From Clostridia bacterium (lineage in GTDB: Bacteria > Bacillota > Clostridia > UBA1381): a stretch of 63,069 nucleotides of DNA. The stretch covers positions 1 to 63,069 of the forward strand of contig JAZNIV010000001.1 in assembly GCA_045577675.1 (NCBI GenBank). Direction: 5' to 3'. Under the pieces are notes generated by a model. It worked only from the letters and a program-made list of their open reading frames with translations, did no database searches and had not been told where the DNA came from. The position numbers were made by a program, and so were the translations under genes. Shown piece after piece: positions 21,452 to 52,676 of the stretch (position 1 is its first letter; the number at the start of each line of letters is the position of its first letter).

Positions 21452-21482
21452 CAAAAAAAGCATAGAAATAATTCCATGCTTT
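21452..21482 (-). terminator. Weak intrinsic terminator/attenuator between the 727-aa gene and the binding-protein gene
   Basis: A/T-extended hairpin AAAGCATAG..CCATGCTTT with one mismatch. On the minus strand it is followed by a T7 run. Confidence 0.4.
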
Positions 21483-21512
21483 TTATTACTTCACAATATA
21501 TTTATACTATTT

Positions 21513-23696
21513 TCACCGATTATCACCGATAAAAATGATTTCACAGGATTTTCCGTTTTTAAAAACGATTTTCTTCCCCGTCAGGCTTGAATATAGTATT
21601 TCAACATCGTTGTCGATGGTAATATATACAGCATCATTACATATCTCTGCCTTACAGCCATAGCAAAGCATTTCATTATCTTCTTCTGCTATAAATGCCT
21701 TGTTCAGTACCGTTTCTTCCATACACTTGAAAATCTCATGTACATCGTTATCGCATACACCACCCTGATTTTCAATCATTATTGTTTTATCTTCAAGAAA
21801 CAGGGGACAAGAATTATAGCCACCGACAACAGGATTATCTTTTGACGCACGATACCAATCTGAAATCATCGGAATATACTGTTCACTTATAACAGAATCT
21901 ATGTATTTTCCCTGACATCCGGTATATGGCAACTTTACACTATTATATGCGTCAACAACAGCTTTTTCTGTATTCTTTACAAAAATTTCCGTTTTTAAAT
22001 GCGGTTCGCATACAAAACTCCATCTCAAATTCCCCTCCGCATTCATAAGCTGCAAGCATGCACCCAGACCATTTTCAAATTCTTTTAAATATATTGCTTT
22101 TCCTGTAAGCAAATAAAGATAATATTTCGCATATATAGTCCATGCTGTCCAACCATGGGGACTATTAAGCATATTACCTTTATAGTTCACATCATACTGT
22201 GCTTCCCAATAGCGTATACTCGCACCATTCATTCTTGTATCCGGAATGTTATTCTGTTCAAGACACCTATGTTTATTTATCATATATTCTGCAGCACGGA
22301 CATATTTTTTTCTTTCATTTTTCGGAAGTTCCAGCGCAAAGTATGCCAGCTGCAATGCCGCACATGAAATCATTCCATCTTCAAAAGTCATTTCTCCTTC
22401 TGTTTCCAGATTGTCAAGACGCTCCGCTAAATCATCAATAGCTTTTTTTACTGATTCGTAATGTTCCTTTCCTTTTTCTTTAAAATAATTTTCTGACCTT
22501 TTAAGTTCAGCGTGATATAACTCCATCAGAGATTTTGCCGGATATATAACGCAAGTGTAATGAGTATTTTTCCTATAATATCCTCCGTCCTGTTTTTGCT
22601 TTTCGACAAGCAAATCCCCATACATAGAAGCAAGCTTTAAGTATTCAAGCTCCCCTTCCGCTTCATATCTGTCCACCAAAAGACTAATAAAGCTGGAAAT
22701 GTTTTGTATTCTCTCCGGTATAACCTTCGGTCTTGCAGAATTAAAATCAAAAATCAAAGGCATTATTTCATCAAACATAGCGTTGATAGTGTTATCAAAC
22801 TCAGCATCGGGATAATGTTTCATTGCAAGATATCCCGAAAAAAATCCATACCAGCTCTCACAATGTGTTGTTGCCTTAGGTGGTTTGAACACTACATTTT
22901 CCCGAGCCTTTTCAAGATACCATTTATAATCATTTCTCACATAATATAACGCCTGTGTTTCATGGTCGTTCTCATCCCTTACATTCAATTTATACAGACC
23001 GACTTTGTCTGTATTTTTAGCTATCTCACCATCCGGCCCTATAATAATATCATCATATTTTTTTTCAGATATTATTCTATATGTTATTTTTTCTCCTATG
23101 CCCAATGTATATTTAGAGGATACAACAATCGGAATGCCGATTAAATGATTGATTTTGGCAAAAACATTTTTTTCATTCAATCCCGGCAACAAATATATAT
23201 TCAGCACGCGCTTTTCGCCCGGTTCTAAATATGATGCTTCTTTTGCGACTCTATCCGGCAGAGGAGGCTCACATATAACATCAAAATTAACATTCTCTAT
23301 TCTATGTCCATAGTTTCCTGTTTCAAGTATATTATAATCAAAACTATATCCTGCCGCTGAACTTCCGCAACATATTCCGGTCACATCACCATCTGGCGAC
23401 ATAAAAAAGCCATACATATGTGTCTTTTCAAAACGAAGCATCGTTGGAAACATTTTTTGATTCCATTCCGGATAACTTTCCATATATGTATCTATTCCAA
23501 GTTTGACAGATATTTTTTGAGGCTTATATCTGCAATCATTCCGATTAAACAATTCAACCCGAATAGATATACATTCATCAGTTTCATTCACATCCAATGA
23601 CATCTCAACATTATCATATATTGCTTTTGAATCCAGCAAAATTTCCTTTTCATCTTTTTTTATAAAAAGTTGTGGCATTCTTTTTAACACTTTCAT
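21513..23696 (-). CDS. Cytoplasmic protein of unknown function (possibly an alpha/alpha-toroid glycan-processing enzyme)
   Basis: 727-aa ORF with no signal peptide, lying within the sugar operon. I recognise no motif confidently. Confidence 0.5.
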   Translation of the reverse strand: MKVLKRMPQLFIKKDEKEILLDSKAIYDNVEMSLDVNETDECISIRVELFNRNDCRYKPQKISVKLGIDTYMESYPEWNQKMFPTMLRFEKTHMYGFFMSPDGDVTGICCGSSAAGYSFDYNILETGNYGHRIENVNFDVICEPPLPDRVAKEASYLEPGEKRVLNIYLLPGLNEKNVFAKINHLIGIPIVVSSKYTLGIGEKITYRIISEKKYDDIIIGPDGEIAKNTDKVGLYKLNVRDENDHETQALYYVRNDYKWYLEKARENVVFKPPKATTHCESWYGFFSGYLAMKHYPDAEFDNTINAMFDEIMPLIFDFNSARPKVIPERIQNISSFISLLVDRYEAEGELEYLKLASMYGDLLVEKQKQDGGYYRKNTHYTCVIYPAKSLMELYHAELKRSENYFKEKGKEHYESVKKAIDDLAERLDNLETEGEMTFEDGMISCAALQLAYFALELPKNERKKYVRAAEYMINKHRCLEQNNIPDTRMNGASIRYWEAQYDVNYKGNMLNSPHGWTAWTIYAKYYLYLLTGKAIYLKEFENGLGACLQLMNAEGNLRWSFVCEPHLKTEIFVKNTEKAVVDAYNSVKLPYTGCQGKYIDSVISEQYIPMISDWYRASKDNPVVGGYNSCPLFLEDKTIMIENQGGVCDNDVHEIFKCMEETVLNKAFIAEEDNEMLCYGCKAEICNDAVYITIDNDVEILYSSLTGKKIVFKNGKSCEIIFIGDNR

Positions 23697-23768: not shown

Positions 23769-25406
23769 CTAAATATTAATTCCTTTGCCATTTGAATATT
23801 TTACTACTTCTTTATCTTTCGTCTGTTTATAGCTTTCCATAAATTCTAACTGCAAATGCTTCTTTGTTACAAATTCATCATATGCCTCTTTGATTTTGCT
23901 TACAGCATATTTAAGCTGCTCATCCGTATCGCATATCAGATCTTCTCTTCCCAGCCAATCATCCTGATTGCTCCCATTCAGAAAGTGGGAATAAAAATAA
24001 AAGCTCGGTCTGCCGCCGTATGCAATGAATTTTTTTCGGCTTTTCTCCTCCTTAACCGTATAATTCACCGTTGTCGTGGATGGGTTTGATAAAATTATGC
24101 CGTGATATACCAACTGCCAAAACGGTATTTCTTCATCAAATAAATTGCCTGTATCGCCTTCAAAAGTTACATACAAAGCATAATCAAGGTATGGTGCGGC
24201 AAAATCAAACGCGCCTTCCGAGGCAAAGCCTCCAAATAATTCGTGCGACAATCCGCCTATCTTCGCATATAGCTTCTCCGTATCCTGTTCGGTTGCCGGA
24301 TGATTTTTATCATAACATCTTCTAAGCGGCACAACACTCATAACGTCAATATAATGAAGTCCCGAAAATCCGAGTTTCGCTGCCTTGGGAAGTTCCTCTT
24401 TTGCAATTTCATATGCTTTTACAGGGCATAAATCATACATCGTACCGCCGCTCCACGCCAAATCATTTACCGCAAAGCTTCCGTCTGCCTTTTTTACAAC
24501 CATATCGTCTTTGGAAAACCCTTCCGATATATTGTACCAGTCTGTGCTGTTTGTATGGCATACAATCTGATAACCATTATCCTTTGCATATCCTATCAGC
24601 TCTTTTAGTTTTTCTTCTCCGCCAAGCTTTTCCTCAACCGGGAACATTTGCGGCCAGCGTCCGTCATGTCCGCTTTTATTCCATCCGACAAGACATATTT
24701 CCGCCTTATCTACTCCCTGCTTTTTTAGCTCGTCAATTATATCCTTTACTCTGTCAAATGTACACGCAACGTGCATTTCCGGCTCATTTTCAATCGTCTG
24801 TTCCAACACTGTAGGCGGCGCCGGTTTCCAGCCCATTCTGATACGGATTTCAACCGATTCTGCCGCATATGAAAGCGCAGGGTTATCCTTCATACGTTCC
24901 CTTATCGGCACACATGCGCCGCGGTCAAGCTGATATTTTCTGTATTCCCGTGCCATATCATTGTAATCTGCATTGTTATCAAGTCTGTGTATTTCCAACG
25001 ATATATCCTCATACGGTTTGTTTTTGTCAAGAACAAATCTCAGCGCCAGAAAATATTTATTGTTATTAACTCCTACGCGAACATGAAAGCAGTTTTTCAT
25101 TCCTGTTACAATTATCAGCGCTGCATATTCCTGCTTTTTGATGCCTGCTATCGGCATGAGATTTTGCTTTAAAACCAGCTCCTCATCTTCTTTTTTATCA
25201 AACCGGCAAAGATAACTGCCCACCTTATTAACATCTGCAATTACATAATATCCTTCTTCACCGGCGTTTGCCGCAAAGGCATCCATATTTATTTCAACAA
25301 ATTCAATACCCTTTTCTATTTTATTCTTTGGAATTGTTATTCTGCAAATTTCCCCGTTGTCATTCACAATCGGCTCATATATTTTTCCGCTATTATCTAA
25401 AATCAT
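23769..25406 (-). CDS. Cytoplasmic putative TIM-barrel glycoside hydrolase (tentatively DUF5696-like)
   Basis: 545-aa ORF. The segment LVGWNKSGHDGRWPQMFPVEEKLGGEEKLKELIGYAKDNGYQIVCHTN looks like a glycosidase barrel. Its start overlaps the upstream reductase-like gene by 14 nt. Confidence 0.45.
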   Translation of the reverse strand: MILDNSGKIYEPIVNDNGEICRITIPKNKIEKGIEFVEINMDAFAANAGEEGYYVIADVNKVGSYLCRFDKKEDEELVLKQNLMPIAGIKKQEYAALIIVTGMKNCFHVRVGVNNNKYFLALRFVLDKNKPYEDISLEIHRLDNNADYNDMAREYRKYQLDRGACVPIRERMKDNPALSYAAESVEIRIRMGWKPAPPTVLEQTIENEPEMHVACTFDRVKDIIDELKKQGVDKAEICLVGWNKSGHDGRWPQMFPVEEKLGGEEKLKELIGYAKDNGYQIVCHTNSTDWYNISEGFSKDDMVVKKADGSFAVNDLAWSGGTMYDLCPVKAYEIAKEELPKAAKLGFSGLHYIDVMSVVPLRRCYDKNHPATEQDTEKLYAKIGGLSHELFGGFASEGAFDFAAPYLDYALYVTFEGDTGNLFDEEIPFWQLVYHGIILSNPSTTTVNYTVKEEKSRKKFIAYGGRPSFYFYSHFLNGSNQDDWLGREDLICDTDEQLKYAVSKIKEAYDEFVTKKHLQLEFMESYKQTKDKEVVKYSNGKGINI

Positions 25407-26328
25407 CTACAGAAAACCTCCACACTTCACGCTTACGAAACGGCGTTTTAAATTTTCTTTTCAAGACGCCTTTTTCCTCCAAATGTACATAGCATTCCAC
25501 ATCACAGGCACGTCCGCATATCGAACATTGATAAGCATGCTGTGCCGGCGGATAAAAATATATTTTATCAAGAATTTTTCTTGCTGTTTCAGGCGTCACC
25601 TTTGCCTCGCCTGCAATAATCTCCAGTCTGTTATCAAAGCCGTCGAATGCTTCCGGCGGCATAAACGGATTTTTGGTTCCGTTAGCTCCGTTATAATAGA
25701 CAGCACACTGCCACGGGTCGACATTTCCGTTTTCATCAATCGCTCCACCCGGACATGCCTTAATGCATTTTCCGCATTTATCGCATAGATGCGGTGATAC
25801 CTCCTCTGTCGGCTCAATTTCCGCGTCGGTTAAAATAAAGCAATAGCGCACCATCGGTCCGAAGTCATCGGTTAAAAGTGAATTATCAAGTCCTTTTTCA
25901 CCCAATCCGCACTTTAGTGCTGTATCCAAAAAATCAATCTGCGCCTCGGATTTTCTGTTTCTGTATACTGCGTCATACGCAACCTCTGGGTTAGTACTGT
26001 TATCCTCTGCCATAATCTGCTGATGCCGCCTTTGCGGCAGGGCAAGAAATCCGTTTTCCTCCAGCATCATGGCAACCTTCAGCTGCGCCATCGGCATGAT
26101 GGTTTCCTCCATGTTTTCGATAGCCATTGTCGTATACTGATAGTACGTACTGCCTTCCTCAATTCCTCTGTATATTCCGCGCAAAATTCTGAAAGCAAGT
26201 CCTATAACCGTTTTTGTTTCCGGCATAATTTTAAAAATCGGATTATCCTTTGAAAATTTTTCAGCCGGAGCAAAACCGATAATATCCGCTCCGTTTTCCT
26301 TTGCAAGCTGTATTATCCTGTCCTTCAC
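25393..26328 (-). CDS. QueG/reductive-dehalogenase-superfamily-like Fe-S protein, paralogue 1
   Basis: 311-aa ORF. N-terminus LAKENGADIIGFAPA, then CGLGEKG, CDKCGKCIKACPGGAI, WQCAVYYNG..NPFMP and a second cluster CSICGRACDVEC. No signal or Tat peptide. Confidence 0.65.
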   Translation of the reverse strand: MKDRIIQLAKENGADIIGFAPAEKFSKDNPIFKIMPETKTVIGLAFRILRGIYRGIEEGSTYYQYTTMAIENMEETIMPMAQLKVAMMLEENGFLALPQRRHQQIMAEDNSTNPEVAYDAVYRNRKSEAQIDFLDTALKCGLGEKGLDNSLLTDDFGPMVRYCFILTDAEIEPTEEVSPHLCDKCGKCIKACPGGAIDENGNVDPWQCAVYYNGANGTKNPFMPPEAFDGFDNRLEIIAGEAKVTPETARKILDKIYFYPPAQHAYQCSICGRACDVECYVHLEEKGVLKRKFKTPFRKREVWRFSVDDFR

Positions 26329-26329
26329 C

Positions 26330-27232
26330 TTAAAACTCCCCTTTCAGATGCCTGTAGCAGGCAATATCGCACTTTCTTCCGCACAGACACGGCGCGTATC
26401 CCCACTGTGTATTCGGCAGAAAATTCATTTCCTTGTATATTTCTCTTGCCGATTCTGCGTCAAAATGCTTTTCTCCGCTTAATATCTTCTCACGCTCCGG
26501 ATTGTCTTTTAAAAATTCATCGGTAACAAACGGGTTTGATTTATGTGCGCCTTTGTAATAAACCGCGCACTGCCATGTATCAAGACCGTTTTCGCTGACC
26601 GCATTTCCCGGGCAGGCCTTTATACATTCTCCGCACTTGTCGCATATCGCCTCCGAAAGCGGCTCGTCACATTCCAGCGGTGCGTCGGTAATGATAAAGC
26701 AATACCTCATAAACGGTCCGTATTCACGGTTTATTATCTTCCCGTTTAATCCAACATCGCCTAATCCGCAGGCTTTTGCCGCCTTTCCGAAATCGATGAT
26801 TACATCCGGCACAGGCTTTCCCGGTCCTACCGCTTCAGCATGAATAAGCTCATACGTATCTAATACTTCGGGATTTGTGGTCTTATCACCCTTAATTCTC
26901 AAATTTGGTATCGCCTTTTGCAGACAGGCGTCATAACCCTCATTTTCTATCATTCCGCCTATTTTTAAGAGGAAAATTTCTGCCATTTCCTCATCTTCAT
27001 ATTTAACCCCTATAGTAGTATATGTATAATATTGATTTCCTCTGTCCATAGCCTTGTATAGGGCTTTCGGCACTAAAAAGCCAAACCCGATAATACATTT
27101 TGCATCCGGCAAAATCATTTTGGGATCTCTCTGCGGATTTTCTTCATCATATATGTTTCCGATACGACATACCGTCGCACCGAGTTCTTTCGCTTTTTTC
27201 TTTATGATCTCACTTGTCAGCATATTTTTCAC
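26330..27232 (-). CDS. QueG/reductive-dehalogenase-superfamily-like Fe-S protein, paralogue 2
   Basis: 300-aa ORF. KAKELGATVCRIGN, CGLGDVG, CDKCGECIKACPGNAV, WQCAVYYKG..NPFV and CLCGRKCDIAC. Confidence 0.65.
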   Translation of the reverse strand: MKNMLTSEIIKKKAKELGATVCRIGNIYDEENPQRDPKMILPDAKCIIGFGFLVPKALYKAMDRGNQYYTYTTIGVKYEDEEMAEIFLLKIGGMIENEGYDACLQKAIPNLRIKGDKTTNPEVLDTYELIHAEAVGPGKPVPDVIIDFGKAAKACGLGDVGLNGKIINREYGPFMRYCFIITDAPLECDEPLSEAICDKCGECIKACPGNAVSENGLDTWQCAVYYKGAHKSNPFVTDEFLKDNPEREKILSGEKHFDAESAREIYKEMNFLPNTQWGYAPCLCGRKCDIACYRHLKGEF

Positions 27233-27737
27233 CCTTTCTTTTCATGGATCGACAAATAATAATTGATGCAATAATTGATAATTCTGTCAAAAATTCGTTT
27301 ATAACTGTTGCAATAGAGTTGTAATGTATACCGTAAGTCAGCATACCTACCGATGCAAAAAATGCAAACGCTCTTGTAATGGTAATTTTTTTACTTCCGA
27401 AAGCTATTGTTGTCAATACTGAACTGACCGCCGGAACAATACTGTAAATACCCTTCCATGTCATCAGCGACGCCAACACAAACATAATGGAAAATACAAC
27501 GCACCACAGTTTGCTTTTTGCCCATTTTCTATCATAATGGTAAAACACAATCTCACGAAATATAGCAACAGATGTTGTTGCCGCCGCCGAGTAACTGAAT
27601 ATCATAAAATGATGCGCAGCCCAAAGAACATCGGTTGTAAGCTTTAGAATAAGTCTGTTTTTTCGCCGGCGCTGCCAATATATTATTGTTGATATCACCA
27701 TTGCAGCAAAGCCGATTAGCTGACCCACATTTTCCAT
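27210..27737 (-). CDS. YgjV-family (PnuC/SWEET-clan-like) inner-membrane protein
   Basis: The ORF track gives 193 aa. I prefer the start at MENVGQLIGFAAMVISTIIYWQRRRKN (ATG at 27737), directly after the cupin stop at 27739. Hydrophobic segments and the basic loop resemble E. coli YgjV. Confidence 0.6.
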   Translation of the reverse strand: MENVGQLIGFAAMVISTIIYWQRRRKNRLILKLTTDVLWAAHHFMIFSYSAAATTSVAIFREIVFYHYDRKWAKSKLWCVVFSIMFVLASLMTWKGIYSIVPAVSSVLTTIAFGSKKITITRAFAFFASVGMLTYGIHYNSIATVINEFLTELSIIASIIICRSMKRKGEKYADK

Positions 27738-27738
27738 G

Positions 27739-28065
27739 TTACACGCTCTTTTTCTCTGTATTACCCTTATTCGTGCTGCTGTTTTCCACAACCATAACAG
27801 TTGCGTCCTGACTTACCGTTATATGATGCCACTCACCTTTTGGAATGTTATACAGCTTGCATTTTTCCATGGTAACTCTTTCATTTTCGGTATATAGCGT
27901 AGCCTCGCCGGAAAGAAGCGCAAATGCCTCGTCTGTTTCAAGATGACGTTCAAGCTGTTTAAATTCCGAAAATCTTTCACTGTATCTTAAAAATCCGATT
28001 TTCCAGCCTTCAAACTGCATCATTACCTTAAAATCTTCACCGGAAAATTCGTATTTTTCTATCAT
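27739..28065 (-). CDS. Small cupin-fold protein (WbuC-like)
   Basis: 108-aa ORF. LERHLETDEAFALLSGEATLY..IPKGEWHHITV pattern. Its start overlaps the upstream stop by 4 nt. Confidence 0.6.
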   Translation of the reverse strand: MIEKYEFSGEDFKVMMQFEGWKIGFLRYSERFSEFKQLERHLETDEAFALLSGEATLYTENERVTMEKCKLYNIPKGEWHHITVSQDATVMVVENSSTNKGNTEKKSV

Positions 28066-29141
28066 CTGTCAAGCCTCCACGCTTTTTTGGTTCTTAGCGG
28101 CTTTTTAAATCTGTTCTCCATACAGCCGCCTTTCTTTTCCAGTATCGAAACACAGGCTCTTATGCAGCCGCCGCACTTTGCCATGTTATATCCGACCCAA
28201 CTTGGGAAATATTTTTGAAGTGCCGTATAAACTTTCATAATTTCCTGCTCATTTGCAACATCGGTTACACCCTCCATCAGGTCGAGCGCACCGTTTTCGT
28301 TTTTATCCCAGACCTCTTTGGGGACAAAAGGATTATAATATCTGCCGGCATGCGTATAAAAGGCATAGCAGCGCCACATATCAATATCGCCCCATTCGAG
28401 GATTTTACCATCAAGATTTACTGTGACCGTTTTGCCCGAATTAATAGCGGGAATACAGCCGCCCGGACATTCACGAACACAGGCACCGCACCTTCTGCAA
28501 AGGGGCTTACCGGAATACATCTCGTCATACTCCAGTACAGCGTCGGTAAAAATGAATGCCACTCTCTGCAGCGGTCCGAATTCCGGCGTCAAAAGCATTT
28601 TGCTCCATCCTATTTCGCCCAGTCCGCAGGCAACTGCTGCAATTCTGAACTGAAACTGTAAATCCGGCGCAACGCCGCCCTCACGCGCCGGTCTTGTGAA
28701 CTGTACACTGCGATGATGCGCCGTAGAGGTTTTTGCATTCTCATTAACTTCAATCTGCTCCTCCGGAGAAAGGGTGTTTCCCGGTGAACCGTCCATATCG
28801 GATACAACTCCTCTTGCTCCGGTATTACGATAAACAAAAGCCTCATAACCCTCGTCCTCGATTACCTTTCCGACATGATACAAAACTGCCGGAGCAAAGA
28901 TTTCATTAATTCCGCCGTATGCCATGGAAGGGTACTGATAAAACTGTGTTCCTTCTTCAATTCCCCTTTGCACTCCTCTCGGTATACGGAAAACAAATCC
29001 GATGCAGCTTTTAGCCTCCGGGAATAAAAACTGAGGATTCATCTCGTCCGGTGCACCGTCAAATCTTGACATAGGCGCAATTCCGCACGCGTCCGCTCCT
29101 GCTGCCAGTGCGGCCTCCTTAATCATTTTGCTTGTAAGCAT
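28062..29141 (-). CDS. QueG/reductive-dehalogenase-superfamily-like Fe-S protein, paralogue 3
   Basis: 359-aa ORF. AALAAGADACGIAPM, CGLGEIG, CRRCGACVRECPGGCI, WRCYAFYTH..NPFVP and CGGCIRAC. Confidence 0.65.
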   Translation of the reverse strand: MLTSKMIKEAALAAGADACGIAPMSRFDGAPDEMNPQFLFPEAKSCIGFVFRIPRGVQRGIEEGTQFYQYPSMAYGGINEIFAPAVLYHVGKVIEDEGYEAFVYRNTGARGVVSDMDGSPGNTLSPEEQIEVNENAKTSTAHHRSVQFTRPAREGGVAPDLQFQFRIAAVACGLGEIGWSKMLLTPEFGPLQRVAFIFTDAVLEYDEMYSGKPLCRRCGACVRECPGGCIPAINSGKTVTVNLDGKILEWGDIDMWRCYAFYTHAGRYYNPFVPKEVWDKNENGALDLMEGVTDVANEQEIMKVYTALQKYFPSWVGYNMAKCGGCIRACVSILEKKGGCMENRFKKPLRTKKAWRLDR

Positions 29142-29162
29142 TTTATCACCTTTCCTTTATCA

Positions 29163-30146
29163 TCACGGGCATCTCGCAATTCCCTGCGCCCACAGGCATG
29201 CGCCGCATGTGGGCTTTTCATTGAACATGCAATCCCTTTCATTGCTTAACCTATCGTCACAACCGTCACATAGTGTGCAGTCAGGAAATTCAAATTTGTG
29301 TACCTTATCCCTGAATTTTGTATACTCTGCACTATCCCATATCGTCTTTAGGGAATCTTTACATACATTCCCAAAGCTGTGACAAAGAACCCTTCTTTTT
29401 TCCTCAAAAAGATATGTATCACTGCTATGCAGCAGCTGCATACATGGGCATACATCCCCATTCCATTTAATAAAGCATTCATTTCCTTCTATAAACGGGC
29501 AAAAATCATGATATATCTCACTCTTATCACGTACCCTGGATCTTTTTCCAACCGGATATCCGGCATCATATACAGAATTTTCTCTGCTGATCGGATATGA
29601 CGGTACGCAATAGCTTAAATTTATTTCATCAGCGGAAAATCTGTCTGCAAAAACATTTATTTTTTCCGCCTCGGCAATATTATCGTCCATCATAACAAAT
29701 GTAAAGCCGAGTTTACAGCCATTCCTCTTTTTTGTAAAATAAGAAATATTTTTACACAGCGAGTCGAACATTGCGCCACGCTGAATTTTTTCATAGCTTT
29801 CCCTGTCAAAACCGTCCACTGATATCCACAGTTCGTCCAGCCCGTAATTTAGCAGCATATCCGTCATTCTTTCGTCAAGTAAAAAAGCATTTGTCAAAAT
29901 TACCGCAGTTTTTCCCGCCTGCTTAACTTCATAAACCATTTTACAAATATCGTTATGTACAAGCGGCTCCCCCATTCCTGCAAACATAACGGTCTGCAGG
30001 TTCGGCAGTTCCCCAATTGATTTCAAGGTTTTTTCAAATACTTCCCTGCTCATGTCCCCCTGCGGCTCATTTATCCAGCTTTGTCGGAAACACATTTTAC
30101 AGTTTAGATTGCACCGTGATGTCGCTTCAATATATAACTTATCCAT
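29163..30146 (-). CDS. Radical SAM enzyme with a SPASM-like C-terminal Cys-rich domain
   Basis: 327-aa ORF. CNLNCKMC (CxxxCxxC) at residues 12-19. The C-terminus has CPCMQ, CTLCDGCDDR and CGACLWAQGIARCP. Confidence 0.85.
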   Translation of the reverse strand: MDKLYIEATSRCNLNCKMCFRQSWINEPQGDMSREVFEKTLKSIGELPNLQTVMFAGMGEPLVHNDICKMVYEVKQAGKTAVILTNAFLLDERMTDMLLNYGLDELWISVDGFDRESYEKIQRGAMFDSLCKNISYFTKKRNGCKLGFTFVMMDDNIAEAEKINVFADRFSADEINLSYCVPSYPISRENSVYDAGYPVGKRSRVRDKSEIYHDFCPFIEGNECFIKWNGDVCPCMQLLHSSDTYLFEEKRRVLCHSFGNVCKDSLKTIWDSAEYTKFRDKVHKFEFPDCTLCDGCDDRLSNERDCMFNEKPTCGACLWAQGIARCP

Positions 30147-31170
30147 TTACATCCATCAGCTCTGACAAATCAATCAGCGCATTTTTATAATTTTCGCTGC
30201 ACTTATTGCAGGAAGTACAATTTTTATCGCAGAACAAATAGTCGTTTTTGAGCTTAGAGTTGTCAATCACAAACGGGTATATTCTTCCGGCATGATTGGG
30301 TTCTAAAATCTCCAGGATATTCCCGGTACACCTTCTGTTTACATAGCTTTTTAAAATAAGCAATGGCTTATCGGAAACTCTTGTTGCAAGCTTCATAGAA
30401 TCAAAATACGGCTCATACAAATTCACATCCTCCGGTCTTATGAAATTTGTATCGCGTATAAGTGAAATCCGCTTTTGGGGATTTTCCAGATATTCATGGC
30501 AAATGCCGAAAAAGTCATAGCAGTTATCCTTTTTTGCCATTTCACTTTCATGAGCAACAAGATTATCATGAAAAGTATGTGCCGAACAATGGTTAAGACA
30601 TCCGCTGTTTGCAAGAATATGCAGTGTTTTTCCGTTATCATAACACCATTTTTTGAGTTCCTTTATTTTGCCGAAATCACGGTTATATTCTCTCTGCATA
30701 TAATATCCGTCAAAATAATCCGCCAGATAATCCATTCCCTGTATGCTGCCAATCTCCATATTTACTGATGCACGCACACTTATATTTTTAAAATTGTTTT
30801 TTATAAACTTGGCAATAACCGGCGATGTGGTCGTAACGGAAGACAAATTGAAATTTTCCTTTATGTAGTCTATTGTATCGCCTATTTTGTTAAAGAAGTA
30901 TCGCGAAAGGCTGTCCGCTCCGTAGCAGTTACCGTTAAACAGCAGATTAAAAGCTATTCCGCTGTCATTTAGCACTTTAAGGTCGCATATTTGCTGTTCC
31001 ATTGCCTCCCACGGTGTGAGCTGCTGTGTCTGTAAATTCCGTCCATTCGGGAAATCGCCCCACGAAAAGTAAACTTCTTTGATGTTCTCCCTGCACCTGA
31101 TTATTTCATCAATAAACGAGCCGTCAGACAGCATTTGATAACCGACAGAATATTTCAATTTACTCACCAC
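30139..31170 (-). CDS. Uncharacterised protein with a Cys-rich C-terminus, translationally coupled to the radical SAM gene (a U32-like barrel is only a guess)
   Basis: 343-aa ORF. SGCLNHCSAHTFH and C-terminal CDKNCTSCNKC. 8-nt overlap with 29163-30146. Confidence 0.5.
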   Translation of the reverse strand: MVSKLKYSVGYQMLSDGSFIDEIIRCRENIKEVYFSWGDFPNGRNLQTQQLTPWEAMEQQICDLKVLNDSGIAFNLLFNGNCYGADSLSRYFFNKIGDTIDYIKENFNLSSVTTTSPVIAKFIKNNFKNISVRASVNMEIGSIQGMDYLADYFDGYYMQREYNRDFGKIKELKKWCYDNGKTLHILANSGCLNHCSAHTFHDNLVAHESEMAKKDNCYDFFGICHEYLENPQKRISLIRDTNFIRPEDVNLYEPYFDSMKLATRVSDKPLLILKSYVNRRCTGNILEILEPNHAGRIYPFVIDNSKLKNDYLFCDKNCTSCNKCSENYKNALIDLSELMDVNG

Positions 31171-31270: not shown

Positions 31271-32119
31271 ATGCTGCTCTCCGCCATAAATCCTTTTATA
31301 CGTTTTGCGCAGCCGATAACCATTGAATGTATAGACAGCCACACAATTTCATATGATTCGCGGCTGTTTTACGTTCTCAGCGGCACGTGTACACTATCTA
31401 TTTCGGATAAGGATTACCAGTTAAAACCCGGCACACTTTTACTTTGGAAAAGCGCTACACCATACAAATTTTCTATCAACAGTAATATCAGCTTAATTTC
31501 CGTTAATTTTGACTATACACAAGAAAATATGCAAAAGAAAGATAGCCTTTCGCCTGTACTTCAGGAGAATTTTGAAGAGAAAAAGCTGCTGGAGAAAATA
31601 TATTTTTCTGATTTTAATATTTTGAACACGCCGATAATATTACAAAATATGCAGCATTTTGAAACAAAAATAAACTTAATTGTAAATGAATTTTCAATGA
31701 AGAAGCTGGGCTATGACGTTGTTTGCTCTGCGGTCCTAAAGGAGCTTATAGTTGAATCCGCACGTATTGCGCTTATTAATATTCCCGAAAATTCATGGAA
31801 AATTGAGAAAGCTGTACAATACATAGAACAGCACTATAACCACGAGATATCAAATGCAGAATTAGCTGCCTTTGTCGGCTACCACCCATACCATCTGAAC
31901 AGGCTTATGAAAAGCACAACCGGCATGACGCTGCACCAGTATATGCTAAACGTCAGAATTGAAAAGGCAAAGAGCGCCCTGCTTAATACCAATATGTCCA
32001 TTGCGGAAATTGCAGAATTGTGCGGATTTAAAAATTCGTATCACTTTTCCAATACCTTTAAAAGCAAAACACACTTTACGCCGTCGTCCTGGCGTAATAC
32101 AAGAAAAAGTATTTTATAA
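31271..32119 (+). CDS. AraC-family transcriptional regulator (cupin sensor plus C-terminal HTH)
   Basis: 282-aa ORF with a GGAGG RBS 8 nt upstream. C-terminal AraC HTH (ISNAELAAFVGYHPYHLNRLMK..IAEIAELCGFKNSYHFSNTFK). Confidence 0.9.
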   Translation: MLLSAINPFIRFAQPITIECIDSHTISYDSRLFYVLSGTCTLSISDKDYQLKPGTLLLWKSATPYKFSINSNISLISVNFDYTQENMQKKDSLSPVLQENFEEKKLLEKIYFSDFNILNTPIILQNMQHFETKINLIVNEFSMKKLGYDVVCSAVLKELIVESARIALINIPENSWKIEKAVQYIEQHYNHEISNAELAAFVGYHPYHLNRLMKSTTGMTLHQYMLNVRIEKAKSALLNTNMSIAEIAELCGFKNSYHFSNTFKSKTHFTPSSWRNTRKSIL

Positions 32120-32246: not shown

Positions 32247-33992
32247 TCAGTACTTTTTTATATTCTTGCCGATTTTAAATCTTACCACCGTCCCCTGTCC
32301 AATCTCCGAACGAAATTCAAAATCATAATCACATCCATAGTATATTGAAAGCCGCCTATCAATATTATAAAGACCATATCCGCCATTAGAGCTGTTGCTT
32401 TTAGGAAATTTTGAATCTCCATCCCATTTGATTCCGACCCCATTATCTGATATTTCAAATATAATGCTCTCATCCTCCTCATAGCCTTTTATAACAATTA
32501 ATCCTTTGTAATCTATATTGTCAAAGCCGTGCTTTATGGAATTTTCCACAATCGGCTGGAGAACAACCTTTACCATATCATAGTCCACAATATTATTATC
32601 TATCTCATATCTAACATCAAACAAATCCGGAAATCTTTCCTTTTCAATTTGCAAATAGCATTTTAAATGTTCAAGTTCTTCATAAACCTTTACTATATTC
32701 TTTCCATTATGAAGTCCCAATCGCAAGAATTTTGCAAGATTAATAATCATATCATCAATTTCATATTCATCATTCTCCTTTGCTTTCCAGCTTATCGCAT
32801 CAAGAGTATTGTACAGAAAATGAGGATTAATTTGAGATTGCAGAAGGTTTATTTCCGTCACCCTCTGTTTTTCATTTTTAATATTAATTTCTTTTATCAG
32901 CTCATAAATCTTTGTACACATTATATTAAACTTCTCGTAGAGAAGACTAACTTCATTTTCATTCTTTATTTCATTTATGTCTTCTTCAAATTTTTTTTCA
33001 AAATTAATTTTTTCCATACGATCTGCAAGTATGACAATATCCCTTGATAAGCACCGCGACAACAACCCTGCCATCATAATTGCCAAAAGTATAATCACAA
33101 CCATTCCTGCAATAATCCCCAAAATTATACTATTCATCGTTTTAAAAAGCCACGCATCACAAATAATTCCTGTTATTTTAAAGTCATTTGTTATCAACGA
33201 TATATCTGTACTATAGTTGACAATTTTATAATCATTTTTTTTCCCTGTTTTGTATCCGATAAATTCTTCCGGCAAATACAACTTCTTTCCAATAATATTC
33301 TTCCCGTCAATATTATTTCCAAAGCAATTAATGATTATATCGTCAATCGAAATAAAAAAATAATTCTGTGATACATTCTGATTTGAAGCTGACAATCCAT
33401 CTCCAAAACTCGAACTGTTGACATAGAAAATAGCTTCGCCATATTTTATCCCTGTAGAATAATTATATATTGTTCTACCCAACGCACAATAATATTTTCC
33501 ATCATAAGTAATCACACTATCGGCTAAAAGCATCTGATATGATGAAAATTTTGCAAGATATTCATCATTTATTTGCATTTTAATATTCTCATCCCCAAAA
33601 TGATATTTACTCCCATCGTATGCAATAAAGTCCATAGCCAAAACAACGCTGTCTTTTGTTATTATTTTATTAAACATGTCGGACAGTTCACTATGCTTTT
33701 GTTCATATGGCATATCCTGTATGGAAATGGAATATATATCGTCTTCTGACTGCATAATTTGTGAAATTGAATAAATTCTGTTAAGCACAAGAGAAATATT
33801 ATCGCTTATACCATCAAAAATTGTTTCAGTATACTCCTGGCATTCATCTTCTATTGTCATTTTAGTATACAAATATAATGCAACAGTCCCCATAACTATA
33901 GCAATTGATGAACAAAACACGATCAACACCATGAAAGCGTGTCTAATATGTATTTTTGAAAAAATAGCTTTTATATGTGTTATATATTTCAT
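32247..33992 (-). CDS. Sensor histidine kinase, YesM/LytS type
   Basis: 581-aa ORF with two TM segments flanking a ~250-aa extracytoplasmic domain. QSQINPHFLYNTLDAI (His_kinase) and a C-terminal HATPase (DNGVGI..GGYGLYNI). Confidence 0.9.
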   Translation of the reverse strand: MKYITHIKAIFSKIHIRHAFMVLIVFCSSIAIVMGTVALYLYTKMTIEDECQEYTETIFDGISDNISLVLNRIYSISQIMQSEDDIYSISIQDMPYEQKHSELSDMFNKIITKDSVVLAMDFIAYDGSKYHFGDENIKMQINDEYLAKFSSYQMLLADSVITYDGKYYCALGRTIYNYSTGIKYGEAIFYVNSSSFGDGLSASNQNVSQNYFFISIDDIIINCFGNNIDGKNIIGKKLYLPEEFIGYKTGKKNDYKIVNYSTDISLITNDFKITGIICDAWLFKTMNSIILGIIAGMVVIILLAIMMAGLLSRCLSRDIVILADRMEKINFEKKFEEDINEIKNENEVSLLYEKFNIMCTKIYELIKEINIKNEKQRVTEINLLQSQINPHFLYNTLDAISWKAKENDEYEIDDMIINLAKFLRLGLHNGKNIVKVYEELEHLKCYLQIEKERFPDLFDVRYEIDNNIVDYDMVKVVLQPIVENSIKHGFDNIDYKGLIVIKGYEEDESIIFEISDNGVGIKWDGDSKFPKSNSSNGGYGLYNIDRRLSIYYGCDYDFEFRSEIGQGTVVRFKIGKNIKKY

Positions 33993-33994
33993 AT

Positions 33995-34882
33995 TTATTT
34001 ATCAATCTTTATTATAAATTCATTCATATCAATGCATAATTGTGATAATAACCTGTCTATATATTTTAAATACTTGTTGATAACATAAATTGAGACAACA
34101 AACAAAAATGCATCAGCAAGCATTATAATCAAAAAAAATTTCAATGCTTTAATATATATATTAATTCGCGAAAAACAAACATTAATTGTTATTTCATCAC
34201 TAAATGGATAAGAATATTTAATATAATAAAATCCATGTTTTTCCTTCGGCATTTTTACTATATTATCTATTGTCTTTACTTTATTACCAACAAGAATATT
34301 ATGTTGATTTTTGTCATTCATATAGATATATGCATTCTCATTCTGCTTATTATAAAAGTTATCCATTGATATCTCGAGCAATAACATACTGCAAATTTTT
34401 CCTTCGCTGTCTAGAATGGGCATACTTAATATTGCACAATTATAAATATCGTCAAATAAGTGCCATTTTGACAGGCTGCCATTATCTCTTTTCTCTCCCG
34501 ACTCAATATATTTTCGATATATATTATCTGAATTTGGTTCATACATATATGCATAGTTCTCTTCTTTAATAATATAATCAACAATGCTTGCATCTACTGA
34601 CATTATATTCTGCATTTGTGCACCTACGCTGAGCGTTCTATTACTAATCGCATCACCCAAACTGCCATTACCGCAATATATCGCCACATTTTCTTCTATC
34701 ATCTTAAGGTGCGAAGAAATATACATTGATACCTGTGTGCCCTCATCCTCTTGCTTGTTCCGAAAATCTTTGTCAGTAATATACAAATACATACTCAATA
34801 CTGTTATAATATGAATTATCAATATAAACAACACCGTTACAGTCAGTGTCCTTCTAAAATGTAAATATAATTTATTAAACAC
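33995..34882 (-). CDS. Membrane protein resembling the sensor half of a YesM-type kinase; no kinase domain
   Basis: 295-aa ORF. TM1 LTVTVLFILIIHIITVLSMYLYI, a ~200-aa extracytoplasmic region, TM2 FFLIIMLADAFLFVVSIYVI and a short tail. Lies between the response-regulator and kinase genes. Confidence 0.6.
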   Translation of the reverse strand: MFNKLYLHFRRTLTVTVLFILIIHIITVLSMYLYITDKDFRNKQEDEGTQVSMYISSHLKMIEENVAIYCGNGSLGDAISNRTLSVGAQMQNIMSVDASIVDYIIKEENYAYMYEPNSDNIYRKYIESGEKRDNGSLSKWHLFDDIYNCAILSMPILDSEGKICSMLLLEISMDNFYNKQNENAYIYMNDKNQHNILVGNKVKTIDNIVKMPKEKHGFYYIKYSYPFSDEITINVCFSRINIYIKALKFFLIIMLADAFLFVVSIYVINKYLKYIDRLLSQLCIDMNEFIIKIDK

Positions 34883-34887
34883 TCACT

Positions 34888-36432
34888 TTATCCCCCATAT
34901 TCAGAAGGTGTACATCCTGTTATTTTTTTAAACACTTTAGAGAAATATTTTGGATCTTGATAGCCTACCATAGAGCTTATCTCCTGAATTTGATATCTTT
35001 TGCTCTTTATAAGGTCAATCGCCATGTTTACTCTGTAATTTGTAATATATCCATTTATCGTTTGTCCGGTTTCTTTTTTAAATATACGCATTAAATACGC
35101 GCAGTCCAAATGCAAATAATCAGCAATCTGTTCCACGCTTATAGATAGCGCATAATGCCGCATGATATATATTTGCGCTTCACATACATGTTTTGAATAT
35201 TTACCGGAGAATTGCGCTTCAGAATGAGAAAAAATACATTCCACAGTTTTTATCAAATAATCGCGCATTTGCGATAACATCTCCAATTTGTTTACTTCTG
35301 CAATAGGACGAGGAATTTTTCCAAAAATCCAGACCGCCTGTGCATCATCCTTTGTTGCCAGATGTATAATCTGCAAAGCAAGCTCGGAAACAAAATCCTT
35401 TAAGCTGTCAATTTCCACATATTCAAATTTTTGTATAGTTTCAAAATGTTCATTGATAATCCGATTTACCTTTTCTCTTTCAAGGTTGCGAATTCCGTTT
35501 AATACTTCCGTAATTTTTTCAGAACTCATAAAGACACCTGCACTCGTTGCTTTTTCTGTTACCTCGCCCTTTTTTCCGCTATAATAAATAACACTTCCAT
35601 AACCCTTTATTGCTTTTTGAGACACCGCAAAAAGCGATTGCATCCATGCCTCGTTTATTTTGCATAAATCTTCAAACAACCGGCTGATTCCCATAACAAT
35701 CTGTACATCAAGCTCATTGACTATGTTGTTTTTTATCTGATTAATTATTTGACATATATTGGTCTGAGTTCTGGTATTTTGACAAAATATTAAAACTGCA
35801 ATACTTTTCTTTTGTATTCTGCAAAAGAAGACATTATATTGATATGATAATCGTTTCATTAATTCATGACTTGTTCGCTCATAAATATCATACTCTTCAT
35901 CAAACTTATTAATTTTTATCTGCATTGTTATAACAAAATAAGGCTCATTACTTAGCGAAATATCATATTTATTACATAACGCATCAATAACATTTTGATC
36001 TACGTTCTCCATATTCAATATTTCATACAAAAACTGCTGAAAAATAAGCATATTGTTTTTATAAATTTGGATCTTTACCTTTTCCAACACTTTCTCGAGT
36101 TCAGCCATATTTATGGGCTTTAAAAGATACGAAAACGCTCCATTGTCCATGGCTTTTTTTATATATTCAAAATTCGGATATCCTGTTAAAATAATTATTT
36201 GTATATTAGGATTAATGGATTTTATTTCAATCAAAAATGATAAGCCGTCTTTTACTTTCATAGATATGTCAGTTATGACAACATCAGGATTAAAAATCTT
36301 AGATTTCTCTAATGCCTCCTGACCATTTCTTGCCCTTGCAACAACACAAAATCCTCTGTCTTCCCATGGAAAAAGCCTTTCAAGACCATTTAAAACAGCT
36401 ATTTCATCATCTACCAGCATTATTTTCAGCAT
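34888..36432 (-). CDS. Response regulator with an AraC-type HTH output (YesN-like)
   Basis: 514-aa ORF. Receiver domain (MLVDDE..DVVITDISM) and C-terminal AraC HTH (VEQIADYLHLDCAYLMRIFK..YQDPKYFSKVFKK). Confidence 0.9.
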   Translation of the reverse strand: MLKIMLVDDEIAVLNGLERLFPWEDRGFCVVARARNGQEALEKSKIFNPDVVITDISMKVKDGLSFLIEIKSINPNIQIIILTGYPNFEYIKKAMDNGAFSYLLKPINMAELEKVLEKVKIQIYKNNMLIFQQFLYEILNMENVDQNVIDALCNKYDISLSNEPYFVITMQIKINKFDEEYDIYERTSHELMKRLSYQYNVFFCRIQKKSIAVLIFCQNTRTQTNICQIINQIKNNIVNELDVQIVMGISRLFEDLCKINEAWMQSLFAVSQKAIKGYGSVIYYSGKKGEVTEKATSAGVFMSSEKITEVLNGIRNLEREKVNRIINEHFETIQKFEYVEIDSLKDFVSELALQIIHLATKDDAQAVWIFGKIPRPIAEVNKLEMLSQMRDYLIKTVECIFSHSEAQFSGKYSKHVCEAQIYIMRHYALSISVEQIADYLHLDCAYLMRIFKKETGQTINGYITNYRVNMAIDLIKSKRYQIQEISSMVGYQDPKYFSKVFKKITGCTPSEYGG

Positions 36433-36931: not shown

Positions 36932-37126
36932 TCAAGAAAATAAAGTACATCCTATTTCTTTATATTGCTGTATTTTTTTTATCATTGCGGTTTCCGGTAC
37001 TTGAAAATATGTTGACATACAGGAAAGACACATATATTTCTGTGCACCTCTATTAACAAGTTTTTTAAACAAAGCGATTTCATCTTTTGTAAGTGCTCTG
37101 TCGCATTTCATGCAATTATACATCAA
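36932..37126 (-). CDS. Small zinc-ribbon-like protein
   Basis: 64-aa ORF with CMKC..(25 aa)..CLSC. Overlaps the end of the GH27 gene; the start is probably the ATG at 37123. Confidence 0.55.
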   Translation of the reverse strand: MMYNCMKCDRALTKDEIALFKKLVNRGAQKYMCLSCMSTYFQVPETAMIKKIQQYKEIGCTLFS

Positions 37127-38243
37127 TCAATTTCCCTCTCAAAATATGGCAAGTATGTTCTTTGGTTTCAGCAGAATAAAAATCTCTTATTACCCCTAAT
37201 TTTTCTCCTGTAACTACATCATGCATATCAAGTCCCTTGCCTGAAGTATATGGTATTCCCAAATCAACAAACGGAATAGTTAAATGGGTTTTGGAGTCAC
37301 TGTAATTATAAAACGCAAGAACATATTCATTATCAGAAAGAATCTTGAACAAGATTCTGTTTCCCCCTGGAGCTTCAATCATTATCGGAGGTCTGCACTC
37401 CGCATCTTGATTAATTGAAATCAGTTCTTTATTCTGCATCAATTCTTTACAATACCCGTCAATTTTTCTTATATCTCCCCCCATAATAAGAGGTGCGCTA
37501 TATAGACACCATAATGAGAACTGCATAAGATATTCTTCATCGGTACATACACACTCTTCCATACCTACAAGCCCTTTTCCGTACATACCGACAGTAAGCA
37601 TGTCTATGTCATTGTAGCAACCCGGACCGGACATTGAAAAATTATTCTCCTGCTTTAAAATAATATCTTTGAATGAATTAAAATTATCAAATATATCACC
37701 TGTCGAACGATATGTATGTGCTCCTATTGAACGCATCCAGTTCCATGATTCATAATGTCCCCAATTACAAGCAGCCAATAATATTTCTCTTCCGCACGAA
37801 CGCAATGCCATGCTCATTGTAAGATATGCGTTTTTGCTGTTTCCGCATGCGGGGAAATTACAGAAATCATATTTCAAGTAATCGATTTCCCATTGCGCAA
37901 ATGTCATTGCATCCTCATATTCATGACCATAGCTTGACGGAAATCTCGCGCAGGTCAAAATTCCGGCACACGAATACATTCCGAATTTAAGTCCCTTTGA
38001 ATGAATATAATCCGCAATGTATTTCATTCCATGAGGAAATTTTTCCGGATCGGGTACAAGATGCCCATCCTTATCTCTTTGTCTTAATGCCCAACAGTCG
38101 TCAATGATTACATACTCATATCCCAACTCCTTATAGCCTTTTTCAACTATAGCATCGGCCGTTTCCATAATCAGTTTTTCGTTAATATCTTTTCCAAAGG
38201 TATTCCAAGAATTCCATCCCATAGGCGGTCTGTTTGCTAACAT
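37116..38243 (-). CDS. Alpha-galactosidase, glycoside hydrolase family 27
   Basis: 375-aa ORF. PPMGWNSWNTF, YEYVIIDDCW and IDYLKYDFC are GH27 hallmarks. Confidence 0.9.
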   Translation of the reverse strand: MLANRPPMGWNSWNTFGKDINEKLIMETADAIVEKGYKELGYEYVIIDDCWALRQRDKDGHLVPDPEKFPHGMKYIADYIHSKGLKFGMYSCAGILTCARFPSSYGHEYEDAMTFAQWEIDYLKYDFCNFPACGNSKNAYLTMSMALRSCGREILLAACNWGHYESWNWMRSIGAHTYRSTGDIFDNFNSFKDIILKQENNFSMSGPGCYNDIDMLTVGMYGKGLVGMEECVCTDEEYLMQFSLWCLYSAPLIMGGDIRKIDGYCKELMQNKELISINQDAECRPPIMIEAPGGNRILFKILSDNEYVLAFYNYSDSKTHLTIPFVDLGIPYTSGKGLDMHDVVTGEKLGVIRDFYSAETKEHTCHILRGKLIDV

Positions 38244-42535: not shown

Positions 42536-42555
42536 TTTATTCTTTATATAAAACT

Positions 42556-49062: not shown

Positions 49063-49081
49063 ATGTTTTCTCCTCTCAAAT

Positions 49082-52667: not shown

Positions 52668-52676
52668 AATTTCCTC

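Follow-up and report, generated by a model that had tools for sequence, protein, structure and literature searches.

A conserved four-gene cassette of three QueG/RdhA-fold paralogues and a U32-like protein in carbohydrate loci of Clostridia and Lentisphaerae

We analyzed a 63,069-nucleotide stretch of the Clostridia bacterium assembly GCA_045577675.1 (contig JAZNIV010000001.1, positions 1 to 63,069; hereafter the window), in which a sequence-only reading had picked out three paralogous iron-sulfur proteins resembling epoxyqueuosine reductase (QueG) and reductive dehalogenase (RdhA) in a glycan-uptake operon. The open reading frames (ORFs) named in that reading were all recovered on the minus strand at the coordinates it gave, and the divergent AraC-family regulator gene it had proposed was confirmed by Pfam matches (HTH_18, 79.9 bits; HTH_AraC, 73.5 bits; N-terminal Cupin_2/AraC_binding domain). 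Three of these genes, here called RdA, RdB, and RdC, belong together with a fourth, U32L, to a conserved cassette, U32L-RdA-RdB-RdC; because it lies nearly always beside sugar-degrading genes, this cassette probably provides a reduction step in anaerobic carbohydrate breakdown. The genes and features of the locus are as follows.

31271..32119, plus strand: divergent AraC-family regulator with a cupin sensor domain and HTH_18 (Pfam scan).
30139..31170, minus strand: U32L, 343 aa, first gene of the core cassette, predicted U32-superfamily triosephosphate isomerase (TIM)-barrel protein (AlphaFold2 [AF2] model and Foldseek).
29163..30146, minus strand: radical S-adenosylmethionine (SAM)/SPASM protein with a CNLNCKMC motif, optional accessory (Pfam).
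28062..29141, minus strand: RdA, 359 aa, QueG/RdhA-fold paralogue with 8 Cys for two predicted [4Fe-4S] clusters (profiles).
27739..28065, minus strand: cupin, 108 aa, optional accessory between RdA and RdB (Cupin_2).
27210..27791, minus strand: Imp-YgjV family membrane protein (YgjV), rare accessory (PF10688).
26330..27232, minus strand: RdB, about 297 to 300 aa, QueG/RdhA-fold paralogue with 8 Cys (profiles, AF2, Foldseek).
25393..26328, minus strand: RdC, 311 aa, QueG/RdhA-fold paralogue with 8 Cys (profiles).
23769..25406, minus strand: GH129/GH101-like glycosidase (DUF5696/DUF6259; GH, glycoside hydrolase), cytoplasmic (DUF5696, 152 bits).
21513..23696, minus strand: 727-aa protein with no family match (Pfam, PDB sequence search).
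21455..21484, minus strand: terminator-like hairpin with a 13-bp stem and a T run (consensus scan only).
21409-21381: promoter-like site 3' of the hairpin, ahead of the ATP-binding cassette (ABC) transporter genes (consensus scan only).

The gene junctions described earlier were reproduced from these coordinates: U32L and the radical SAM gene overlap by 8 nt, RdA and the cupin gene by 4 nt, and RdC and the DUF5696 gene by 14 nt, while gaps of 21 nt and 1 nt separate the radical SAM gene from RdA and RdB from RdC, respectively. Two of the starts probably need adjustment. Since RdB orthologues have 297 aa rather than 300, the RdB start is probably 27223 and not 27232, and the first YgjV start (TTG at 27791) is probably too early, the likelier one being the Met of MENVGQ at about 27737. 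The hairpin at 21484-21455 is the sole strong terminator-like hairpin of the region and stands directly 3' of the 727-aa gene; this gene is probably the last of the cassette transcription unit, with the hairpin as its predicted end, and because of the hairpin the ABC importer genes beyond it may be transcribed separately.

RdA, RdB, and RdC proved to be mutual paralogues, as had been claimed, with 37 to 39% identity (39% between RdC and RdB) and 64 invariant columns; the motifs quoted for them (AKE(N/L)GA.., CGLG(E/D).G, CxxCxxCxxxCPG, W(Q/R)C..(Y/F)Y...NPF, and the second Cys motifs) are all present in the translations, and the translated N termini show neither an RR motif nor a hydrophobic stretch, in agreement with the reported absence of twin-arginine translocation (Tat) and signal peptides. 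Matches to the named family models were far below cut-off, at 40.0, 49.5, and 24.2 bits for RdC, RdB, and RdA against QueG TIGR00276 (cut-off 200) and 38.3, 48.8, and 36.9 bits against the reductive dehalogenase (RDH) model TIGR02486 (cut-off 160.35), each match spanning only about 75 residues. A phmmer search of the PDB with RdB found QueG at 3e-8, and a family profile built from 48 Rd members found QueG (E = 1.1e-15), PceA (2.1e-15), and NpRdhA (3e-8) by way of three colinear segments, namely the N-terminal AKxxGADxVG strand, the PKxxLPxAKS strand, and the GLG stretch with the first cluster. For the AF2 model of RdB (predicted local distance difference test score [pLDDT] 80.7; predicted template modeling score [pTM] 0.81), the top 46 Foldseek matches in the PDB were exclusively QueG, PceA, and NpRdhA (E 4e-9 to 4e-6, probability 1.00), and the B12 chaperones CblC and CblD ranked next. 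The superfamily assignment of the sequence-only reading is thus borne out by three colinear profile segments and by a predicted whole-domain fold, and both the profile and the Foldseek searches gave similarity extending beyond generic ferredoxin motifs.

Eight Cys in a 4+1+3 topology are invariant both across the 48-sequence alignment and among nine paralogues taken from three distant genomes. This topology (C-x2-C-x2-C-x3-C ... C ... C-x2-C-x3-C) is shared with QueG (PMC4646009, PMC5175355), except that the last three Cys are spaced Cx3Cx3C in the Rd proteins and Cx2Cx3C in QueG (PMC4646009). QueG (PDB 5d08, 5d6s) is also their best match in both sequence and fold; like it, they carry a two-cluster ferredoxin domain after an N-terminal alpha-beta-alpha core and are cytoplasmic, with no Tat signal. 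Unlike QueG, to which they are 14 to 16% identical in structural alignments, they lack the C-terminal HEAT-like tRNA-binding domain, so that about 110 residues of E. coli QueG have no counterpart (domain definition from PMC5175355), and they occur as three co-inherited paralogues with a U32-like partner, under AraC or LacI control in carbohydrate loci. With RdhA enzymes (PceA, 4uqu/8q4h; catabolic NpRdhA, 4ras) they share the fold and the cluster arrangement (Foldseek E about 1e-7), and RdA has, like PceA, an insertion between the two Fe-S motifs; unlike RdhA, they have no Tat signal, no RdhB anchor, and no organohalide context. Neither a small membrane anchor nor an NAD(P)H module, fused or adjacent, was found beside the Rd genes. 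We conclude that RdA, RdB, and RdC are QueG/RdhA-fold proteins of a new family that is neither QueG nor RdhA. It is extremely improbable that they are ordinary QueG for tRNA queuosine synthesis: some database entries do name homologues epoxyqueuosine reductase, and QueG is the best-scoring of the named models, but 24 to 50 bits compare with a cut-off of 200, the tRNA-binding domain is without counterpart, the D-Y-H motif of QueG is not conserved at the aligned position, and the three co-inherited copies stand under a sugar-type regulator inside carbohydrate loci. Housekeeping QueG was therefore ruled out by score, absent domain, and gene context.

U32L had no match in Pfam (at E ≤ 0.1) or NCBIfam. 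Its AF2 model (pLDDT 88.7) matched the U32 peptidase Mk0906 (5d88) best in Foldseek, with E = 4.2e-10 and a target-normalized TM-score (TMt) of 0.71; the other matches were generic TIM barrels at E ≥ 4e-5, five orders of magnitude behind. As modeled, U32L has a U32-type (beta/alpha)8 barrel. Five Cys are invariant (Cys82, Cys176, Cys191, Cys195, and Cys224), and C176-x14-C191-x3-C195 comes close to the C-x15-C-x3-C part of the motif CX6CX15CX3C, which ligates a [4Fe-4S] cluster in U32 oxidases (PMC11574389). Unlike in those enzymes, the first Cys pair, CX6C, is not in place, there being no Cys 6 residues from C176, and many members of the U32L family have an additional C-terminal CxxxCxxCxxC motif; this motif, pointed out in the sequence-only reading, is confined to the long U32L subfamily. 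One family member, P0467 (E = 2e-40 to the U32L profile), passes the Pfam Peptidase_U32 model PF01136 with 25.3 bits (cut-off 22.4). Against solved U32 structures, the single U32L sequence reached only E = 0.27, and the family profile found no U32 chain in the PDB, so the link to U32 is drawn from fold, motifs, and the bridging member P0467 and not from a sequence match to solved structures. The U32 oxidases known to us (UbiU/UbiV, TrhP, RlhA) act on quinone precursors or RNA bases and work without QueG-like partners. Homologues of U32L numbered 3374 at 90% clustering and 1486 clusters at 50%; the representative search took the best 150 matches, all at E < 1e-34.

In a separate observation, a Candidatus Ornithomonoglobus metagenome-assembled genome (MAG) encodes a U32L protein extended by a fused beta-helix-like domain, about 710 aa long (locus L014, 2766-5924). 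This domain has weak similarity to GH110 alpha-1,3-galactosidase (E = 2e-4), and DUF5696 and AraC genes lie upstream.

A survey of one genome per GTDB species returned at least 552 loci. The best 80 of these are all in MAGs from human, ruminant, and other animal guts, assigned to Oscillospiraceae, Lachnospiraceae, Christensenellaceae, Acutalibacteraceae, other Clostridia, and Lentisphaerae/Victivallales; homologues numbered 2218 for RdB and 3948 for the Rd profile. Locus-level counts were made on 82 non-redundant loci from Clostridia and Lentisphaerae MAGs. All four cassette genes were present in 68 of them, loci with one or two Rd groups being almost all truncated contigs, and the order U32L-RdA-RdB-RdC is kept in Clostridia and in Lentisphaerae/Victivallales alike. 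RdA, RdB, and RdC are three orthologous groups preserved between phyla, not recent duplicates. An AraC homologue stands beside the cassette in 62/82 loci, usually in divergent orientation, with LacI in its place in Lentisphaerae. Stop/start overlaps are frequent at the U32L/RdA and RdB/RdC junctions, and in P0241, a protein of 630 aa, RdB and RdC are joined in frame and at full length, other fusions being shorter. Since these ancient groups are always kept together and sometimes fused, and their genes overlap, one hetero-oligomer is suggested rather than three parallel enzymes, and the four proteins quite likely form a single co-functioning module.

The unit proposed in the sequence-only reading, three reductases with the radical SAM protein, the cupin, and YgjV, was not upheld by this survey; the invariant core is instead U32L, to which that reading gave brief mention, with RdA, RdB, and RdC. 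Among the three accessory genes, both domains of the radical SAM/SPASM protein score above cut-off (PF04055, 64.6 bits; PF13186, 49.5 bits), its CNLNCKMC motif (CxxxCxxC) lies at residues 12 to 19, and its best NCBIfam model is TIGR04317, a radical SAM maturase of tungsten-cofactor oxidoreductases (261.6 bits; cut-off 380), with 190.8 bits to TIGR04311 (cut-off 400). It thus resembles such metalloenzyme maturases over its full length, in its CxxxCxxC motif, and in its SPASM domain, but it falls below their cut-offs and accompanies a minority of cassettes; no gene of the aldehyde:ferredoxin oxidoreductase (AOR) family was seen among the window genes scanned. YgjV is secure at 78.3 bits to PF10688, above the Pfam cut-off. 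For the cupin, the Cupin_2 match itself is borderline (26.7 bits; cut-off 27.2; 21.5 bits to a WbuC-type cupin model), whereas its standing as a conserved family holds, with homologues in 25/82 loci, always between RdA and RdB. A radical SAM/SPASM homologue lies beside the cassette in about 10 to 13 of the 82 loci and YgjV inside it in 6, and relatives close to the window, at 88% identity, carry U32L-RdA-RdB-RdC-DUF5696 and lack all three accessories. Because each is found in a minority of loci, none can be obligatory, and this applies equally to the suggested roles of the radical SAM protein as maturase and of YgjV as importer; all three were ruled out as core parts.

One variant locus (L036, 10001-11973) encodes, after a U32-like gene, one Rd-like protein in place of three, and then two proteins of unplaced family (664 and 690 aa). 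Single Rd-like proteins of this type (P0246, P0253, and P0305) are about 343 to 350 aa long and 34 to 36% identical to RdB.

Among the paralogues, RdA stands out in conservation. Mean ortholog identity over the same 59 species was 81% for RdA, 66% for RdB, 63% for RdC, and 57% for U32L, and 42% of RdA positions are at least 97% invariant, including private insertions and loops beyond the Fe-S domain. In the well-aligned stretch before the CGLG motif, which reads FVDSAPILERPLAEKAGLG in E. coli QueG, the E. coli enzyme has an Asp at -14 and an Arg at -7 from the CGLG glycine, equivalent to Asp134 and Arg141 of B. subtilis QueG. In the latter, Asp134 is the catalytic acid, held on a mobile loop, and Arg141 lies 4 Å under the corrin (PMC5175355). 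In RdA, position -13 is Asp and position -7 is Arg in 64/64 orthologues. At -13, RdB carries Asp (57) or Glu (6) and RdC carries Glu in 65/65 orthologues; at -7, RdB has Gly or Asn and RdC is variable. All three paralogues thus place an acidic residue at -13, compared with the catalytic Asp at -14 in QueG, and only RdA retains the Arg matching the one under the corrin. In the RdB model, a low-confidence loop (residues 109 to 131) comes directly upstream of the acidic residue, a placement resembling that of the mobile loop holding QueG Asp134. Because Asp(-13) and Arg(-7) are both kept there, RdA appears the likeliest corrinoid-bearing active subunit; by analogy with QueG, we would give the presence of a corrinoid in RdA an even chance.

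The same residues bear on whether the Rd proteins could instead be three independent monomeric reductases, acting on different substrates or successive intermediates and matured by the radical SAM/SPASM protein. The eight Cys and the acidic residue at -13 in all three mean that all are possibly active, QueG itself is monomeric (PMC5175355), and the radical SAM gene overlaps U32L in the window. We nevertheless find this very unlikely, given that the three groups travel together across phyla without change of order, that RdB-RdC fusions exist, that the radical SAM gene is missing from most loci, and that Arg(-7) is confined to RdA.

The gene-neighborhood survey of relatives also bore out the association with glycan genes, which recurs across phyla and is general. 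Downstream of the cassette in the window are the GH129/GH101-like protein, two ABC permeases, S-layer homology (SLH)-anchored proteins, and a protein with GH5-like and carbohydrate-binding module 9 (CBM9) similarity. Against the PDB, the DUF5696 protein matched the GH129 alpha-N-acetylgalactosaminidase 5wzn (4.7e-13), the 3,6-anhydro-D-galactosidase 5opq (1.9e-8), and GH101 (4e-4). A DUF5696/GH129-like gene lies next to or inside the cassette in 17/82 loci (inside in L027, L029, L043, and L084), and a Gfo/Idh/MocA protein of about 427 aa, whose best PDB match is the C-glycoside 3-oxidase DgpA (5e-18) and which also matches GH109 (3e-9), lies near it in 14. These two are the commonest enzyme partners and never occur together in the 47 loci called complete by our ORF-clustering script; we read them as alternative front-end glycoside-cleaving enzymes. 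The closest solved relatives of the partners are thus GH129 enzymes (the NagBb alpha-N-acetylgalactosaminidase and the ZgGH129 3,6-anhydro-D-galactosidase) and DgpA/GH109-type enzymes, but the similarity is distant (E of 5e-13 and 5e-18 over part of the length) and specificity is not transferable. We know of no GH129, GH109, or DgpA pathway with a QueG-like or U32-like protein. Other neighbors of the cassette include an FAD oxidoreductase (PF12831), GH78, GH3, GH95, GH129 proper, a family 4 carbohydrate esterase (CE4), a sulfatase, ABC sugar permeases, AraC or LacI regulators, and a glycyl-radical-enzyme block.

From this context, a carbohydrate-derived substrate seems rather likely. In our view it is quite unlikely that the target is not a sugar but the aglycone of a dietary plant glycoside, aromatic or phenolic in nature and modified, for example, by reductive dehydroxylation or demethoxylation. 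RdhA enzymes act on substituted phenols and U32 oxidases on aromatic rings; some loci combine GH78 rhamnosidase, GH3, the DgpA-like Gfo/Idh/MocA protein, and AP_endonuc_2, which are typical of flavonoid O- and C-glycoside deglycosylation, and the hosts are herbivore and human gut anaerobes. Against this, the window and many other loci encode a GH129-like enzyme together with oligosaccharide ABC importers and SLH-anchored GH5/CBM9 proteins, a combination characteristic of polysaccharide use, Lentisphaerae loci have a sulfatase and LacI, and no aromatic-compound genes were seen.

One locus is of interest in its own right (L090, 2718-19126). It has RdA-RdB-RdC-DUF5696 with no adjacent U32-like gene, and its neighbors are a bona fide GH129 (PF11308), a GH95, a CE4 deacetylase, an IlvD/EDD-type dehydratase, a DHDPS-type aldolase, and SLH proteins.

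We propose that U32L, RdA, RdB, and RdC would form one cytoplasmic hetero-oligomer with at least seven [4Fe-4S] sites, in which low-potential electrons, probably from ferredoxin, would pass through the RdB and RdC clusters to RdA. RdA would be the catalytic subunit, probably with a base-off corrinoid; as in QueG, a conserved carboxylate would protonate the oxygen leaving group while the reduced cofactor carries out a two-electron reductive C-O cleavage, resulting in deoxygenation or ring opening. The substrate would be a small carbohydrate-derived molecule (a sugar, cyclitol, or aglycone), freed in the cytoplasm by a co-encoded glycoside-cleaving enzyme, such as the GH129-like DUF5696 protein in the window or the DgpA/GH109-like Gfo/Idh/MocA protein in other genomes, and U32L would bind, activate, or further convert it. 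The radical SAM/SPASM protein, the cupin, and YgjV would be lineage-specific accessories. For this composite of one module, a corrinoid-bearing RdA, reductive C-O cleavage, and a carbohydrate-derived substrate, we estimate a probability of about 0.45; of its parts, the C-O cleavage, proposed by analogy with QueG, is tentative and short of even odds. A still more specific version is doubtful, in which U32L-RdABC is an unrecognized multi-subunit corrinoid/Fe-S system that applies QueG-type Co(I) chemistry to free carbohydrate-derived substrates; its O2-independent reductive C-O cleavage would act on a sugar or cyclitol that GH129-like or GH109/DgpA-like enzymes release, deoxygenating it or opening a cyclic ether such as an anhydro or epoxy ring.

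Several observations count against the proposed mechanism. The query-normalized TM-score (TMq) of the RdB model to QueG and RdhA is only 0.42 to 0.50, and its presumed active-site loops are of low confidence. The QueG/RdhA fold is related to flavin-binding nitroreductases, and the Rd proteins could for that reason hold another cofactor or none. The Tyr of the D-Y-H motif, common to QueG, PceA, and NpRdhA, aligns with N, D, or E in the Rd proteins, in a MAFFT alignment that at about 20% identity is unreliable; a Q(F/Y)YxY loop located a few residues before it contains an invariant Tyr, and the model is of low confidence there. An Rfam scan of the whole window at gathering thresholds found no cobalamin riboswitch or other RNA, no B12 gene was seen among the window genes scanned, and the cassette encodes no electron donor. 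As to the module, the fusion proteins come from metagenome assemblies, some with an internal deletion, and the four genes are not inseparable, since partial sets occur, with U32L lacking Rd genes in three loci (L025, L057, and L079) and RdABC lacking an adjacent U32L in L090. Co-transcription is predicted from gene spacing and a consensus terminator scan, and the partner glycosidase families are too diverse for the substrate to be named.

The main competitor of the proposed mechanism reverses the roles, with U32L as the catalyst, which in the manner of UbiU/UbiV, TrhP, and RlhA would hydroxylate or oxidize without O2, its target being a sugar or aglycone, and with RdABC as a corrinoid-free, six-cluster electron-transfer or scaffold complex. 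It would account for the U32 fold and the invariant Cys with partly U32-oxidase-like spacing (PMC11574389), for U32L being always the first gene and often overlapping RdA, for the canonical QueG/RdhA Tyr not being conserved in the Rd proteins, and for the want of a nearby B12-related gene or riboswitch. We regard it as unlikely on balance, in that U32L is the least conserved of the four (57%) and RdA the most (81%), which is unexpected for a mere electron wire; moreover, the QueG-like Asp and Arg positions are kept in RdA, one locus has RdABC and a glycosidase with no adjacent U32L, and the U32L profile does not reach any U32 structure by sequence.

No description of the cassette was found in the literature searched, coverage of which was thin for subscription journals, and homologues appear in databases as hypothetical protein, 4Fe-4S binding protein, ferredoxin, epoxyqueuosine reductase, or collagenase-like protease. 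Because both folds are already known, we do not regard the cassette as new in kind; its apparent novelty lies in a QueG/RdhA-fold assembly that is triplicated and seemingly heteromeric, in the coupling to a U32-like partner, and in a consistent placement in carbohydrate loci. To our knowledge, the class-III cobalamin/Fe-S fold has been firmly linked to only two reaction types, the reduction of organohalides and that of epoxyqueuosine, and U32 Fe-S proteins solely to the hydroxylation of RNA bases and quinones. One cassette here brings the two folds together in at least 552 species-level genomes, the best 80 loci being from uncultured gut and rumen Clostridia and Lentisphaerae. Were it a reductase for a carbohydrate-derived substrate, it would supply a missing redox step in anaerobic glycan and glycoside breakdown, add a new B12-dependent trait to gut ecology, and offer enzymologists a natural heteromer built on a fold previously seen only in single catalytic subunits. 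If the more specific version above is true, it would be a new, widespread branch of anaerobic glycan catabolism in gut and rumen bacteria and a need for vitamin B12 in gut physiology not recognized before. Even read conservatively, the analysis corrects a recurrent mis-annotation as QueG and defines a testable four-gene unit.

Beyond the cassette, the minus strand at 37116-46606 of the window encodes a GH27 alpha-galactosidase, a 738-aa glycyl radical enzyme (GRE) with its activase, three Gfo/Idh/MocA oxidoreductases, an AP_endonuc_2 (xylose-isomerase-like) protein, and an AraC regulator, together a candidate for a second sugar or cyclitol pathway. In a distant locus (L007), the cassette is immediately preceded by a similar GRE/Gfo/AP_endonuc_2/PMI block, and GREs adjoin the cassette in 4 loci. 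Between the cassette AraC gene and the GH27 gene (32247-36432) is a sugar-type two-component system of a His_kinase/HATPase sensor and a response regulator with an AraC output domain, along with a 295-aa protein that has no confident family match; G+C content (GC) here is markedly low, at 0.28 to 0.32. Three large proteins, of 727 aa (21513-23696), 1232 aa (14400-18098), and 953 aa (1557-4418), had no Pfam match, the first two also having no meaningful PDB sequence match, and may represent unrecognized carbohydrate-active families.

The raised G+C noted for the Fe-S block is real and mild. At gene level, GC is 0.43 to 0.48 for the three Rd genes and 0.38 to 0.41 for the other genes of the block, compared with 0.379 for the whole window, and GC at third codon positions (GC3) from DUF5696 to AraC is 0.35 to 0.47 (0.39 to 0.47 excluding YgjV, at 0.35), compared with 0.26 to 0.42 in flanking chromosomal genes, where a single permease gene exceeds 0.38. 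Both measures overlap those of other window parts, and the foreign origin that the sequence-only reading had hinted at on composition was dropped. The region at 47185-57888 is mobile-element-like, with ParB, DUF6744, a CHC2 primase/DUF3854 protein, an AAA ATPase, a Rad52-like protein, and a DUF6094 methyltransferase; its GC3, 0.45 to 0.49, is similar to that of the Fe-S block.

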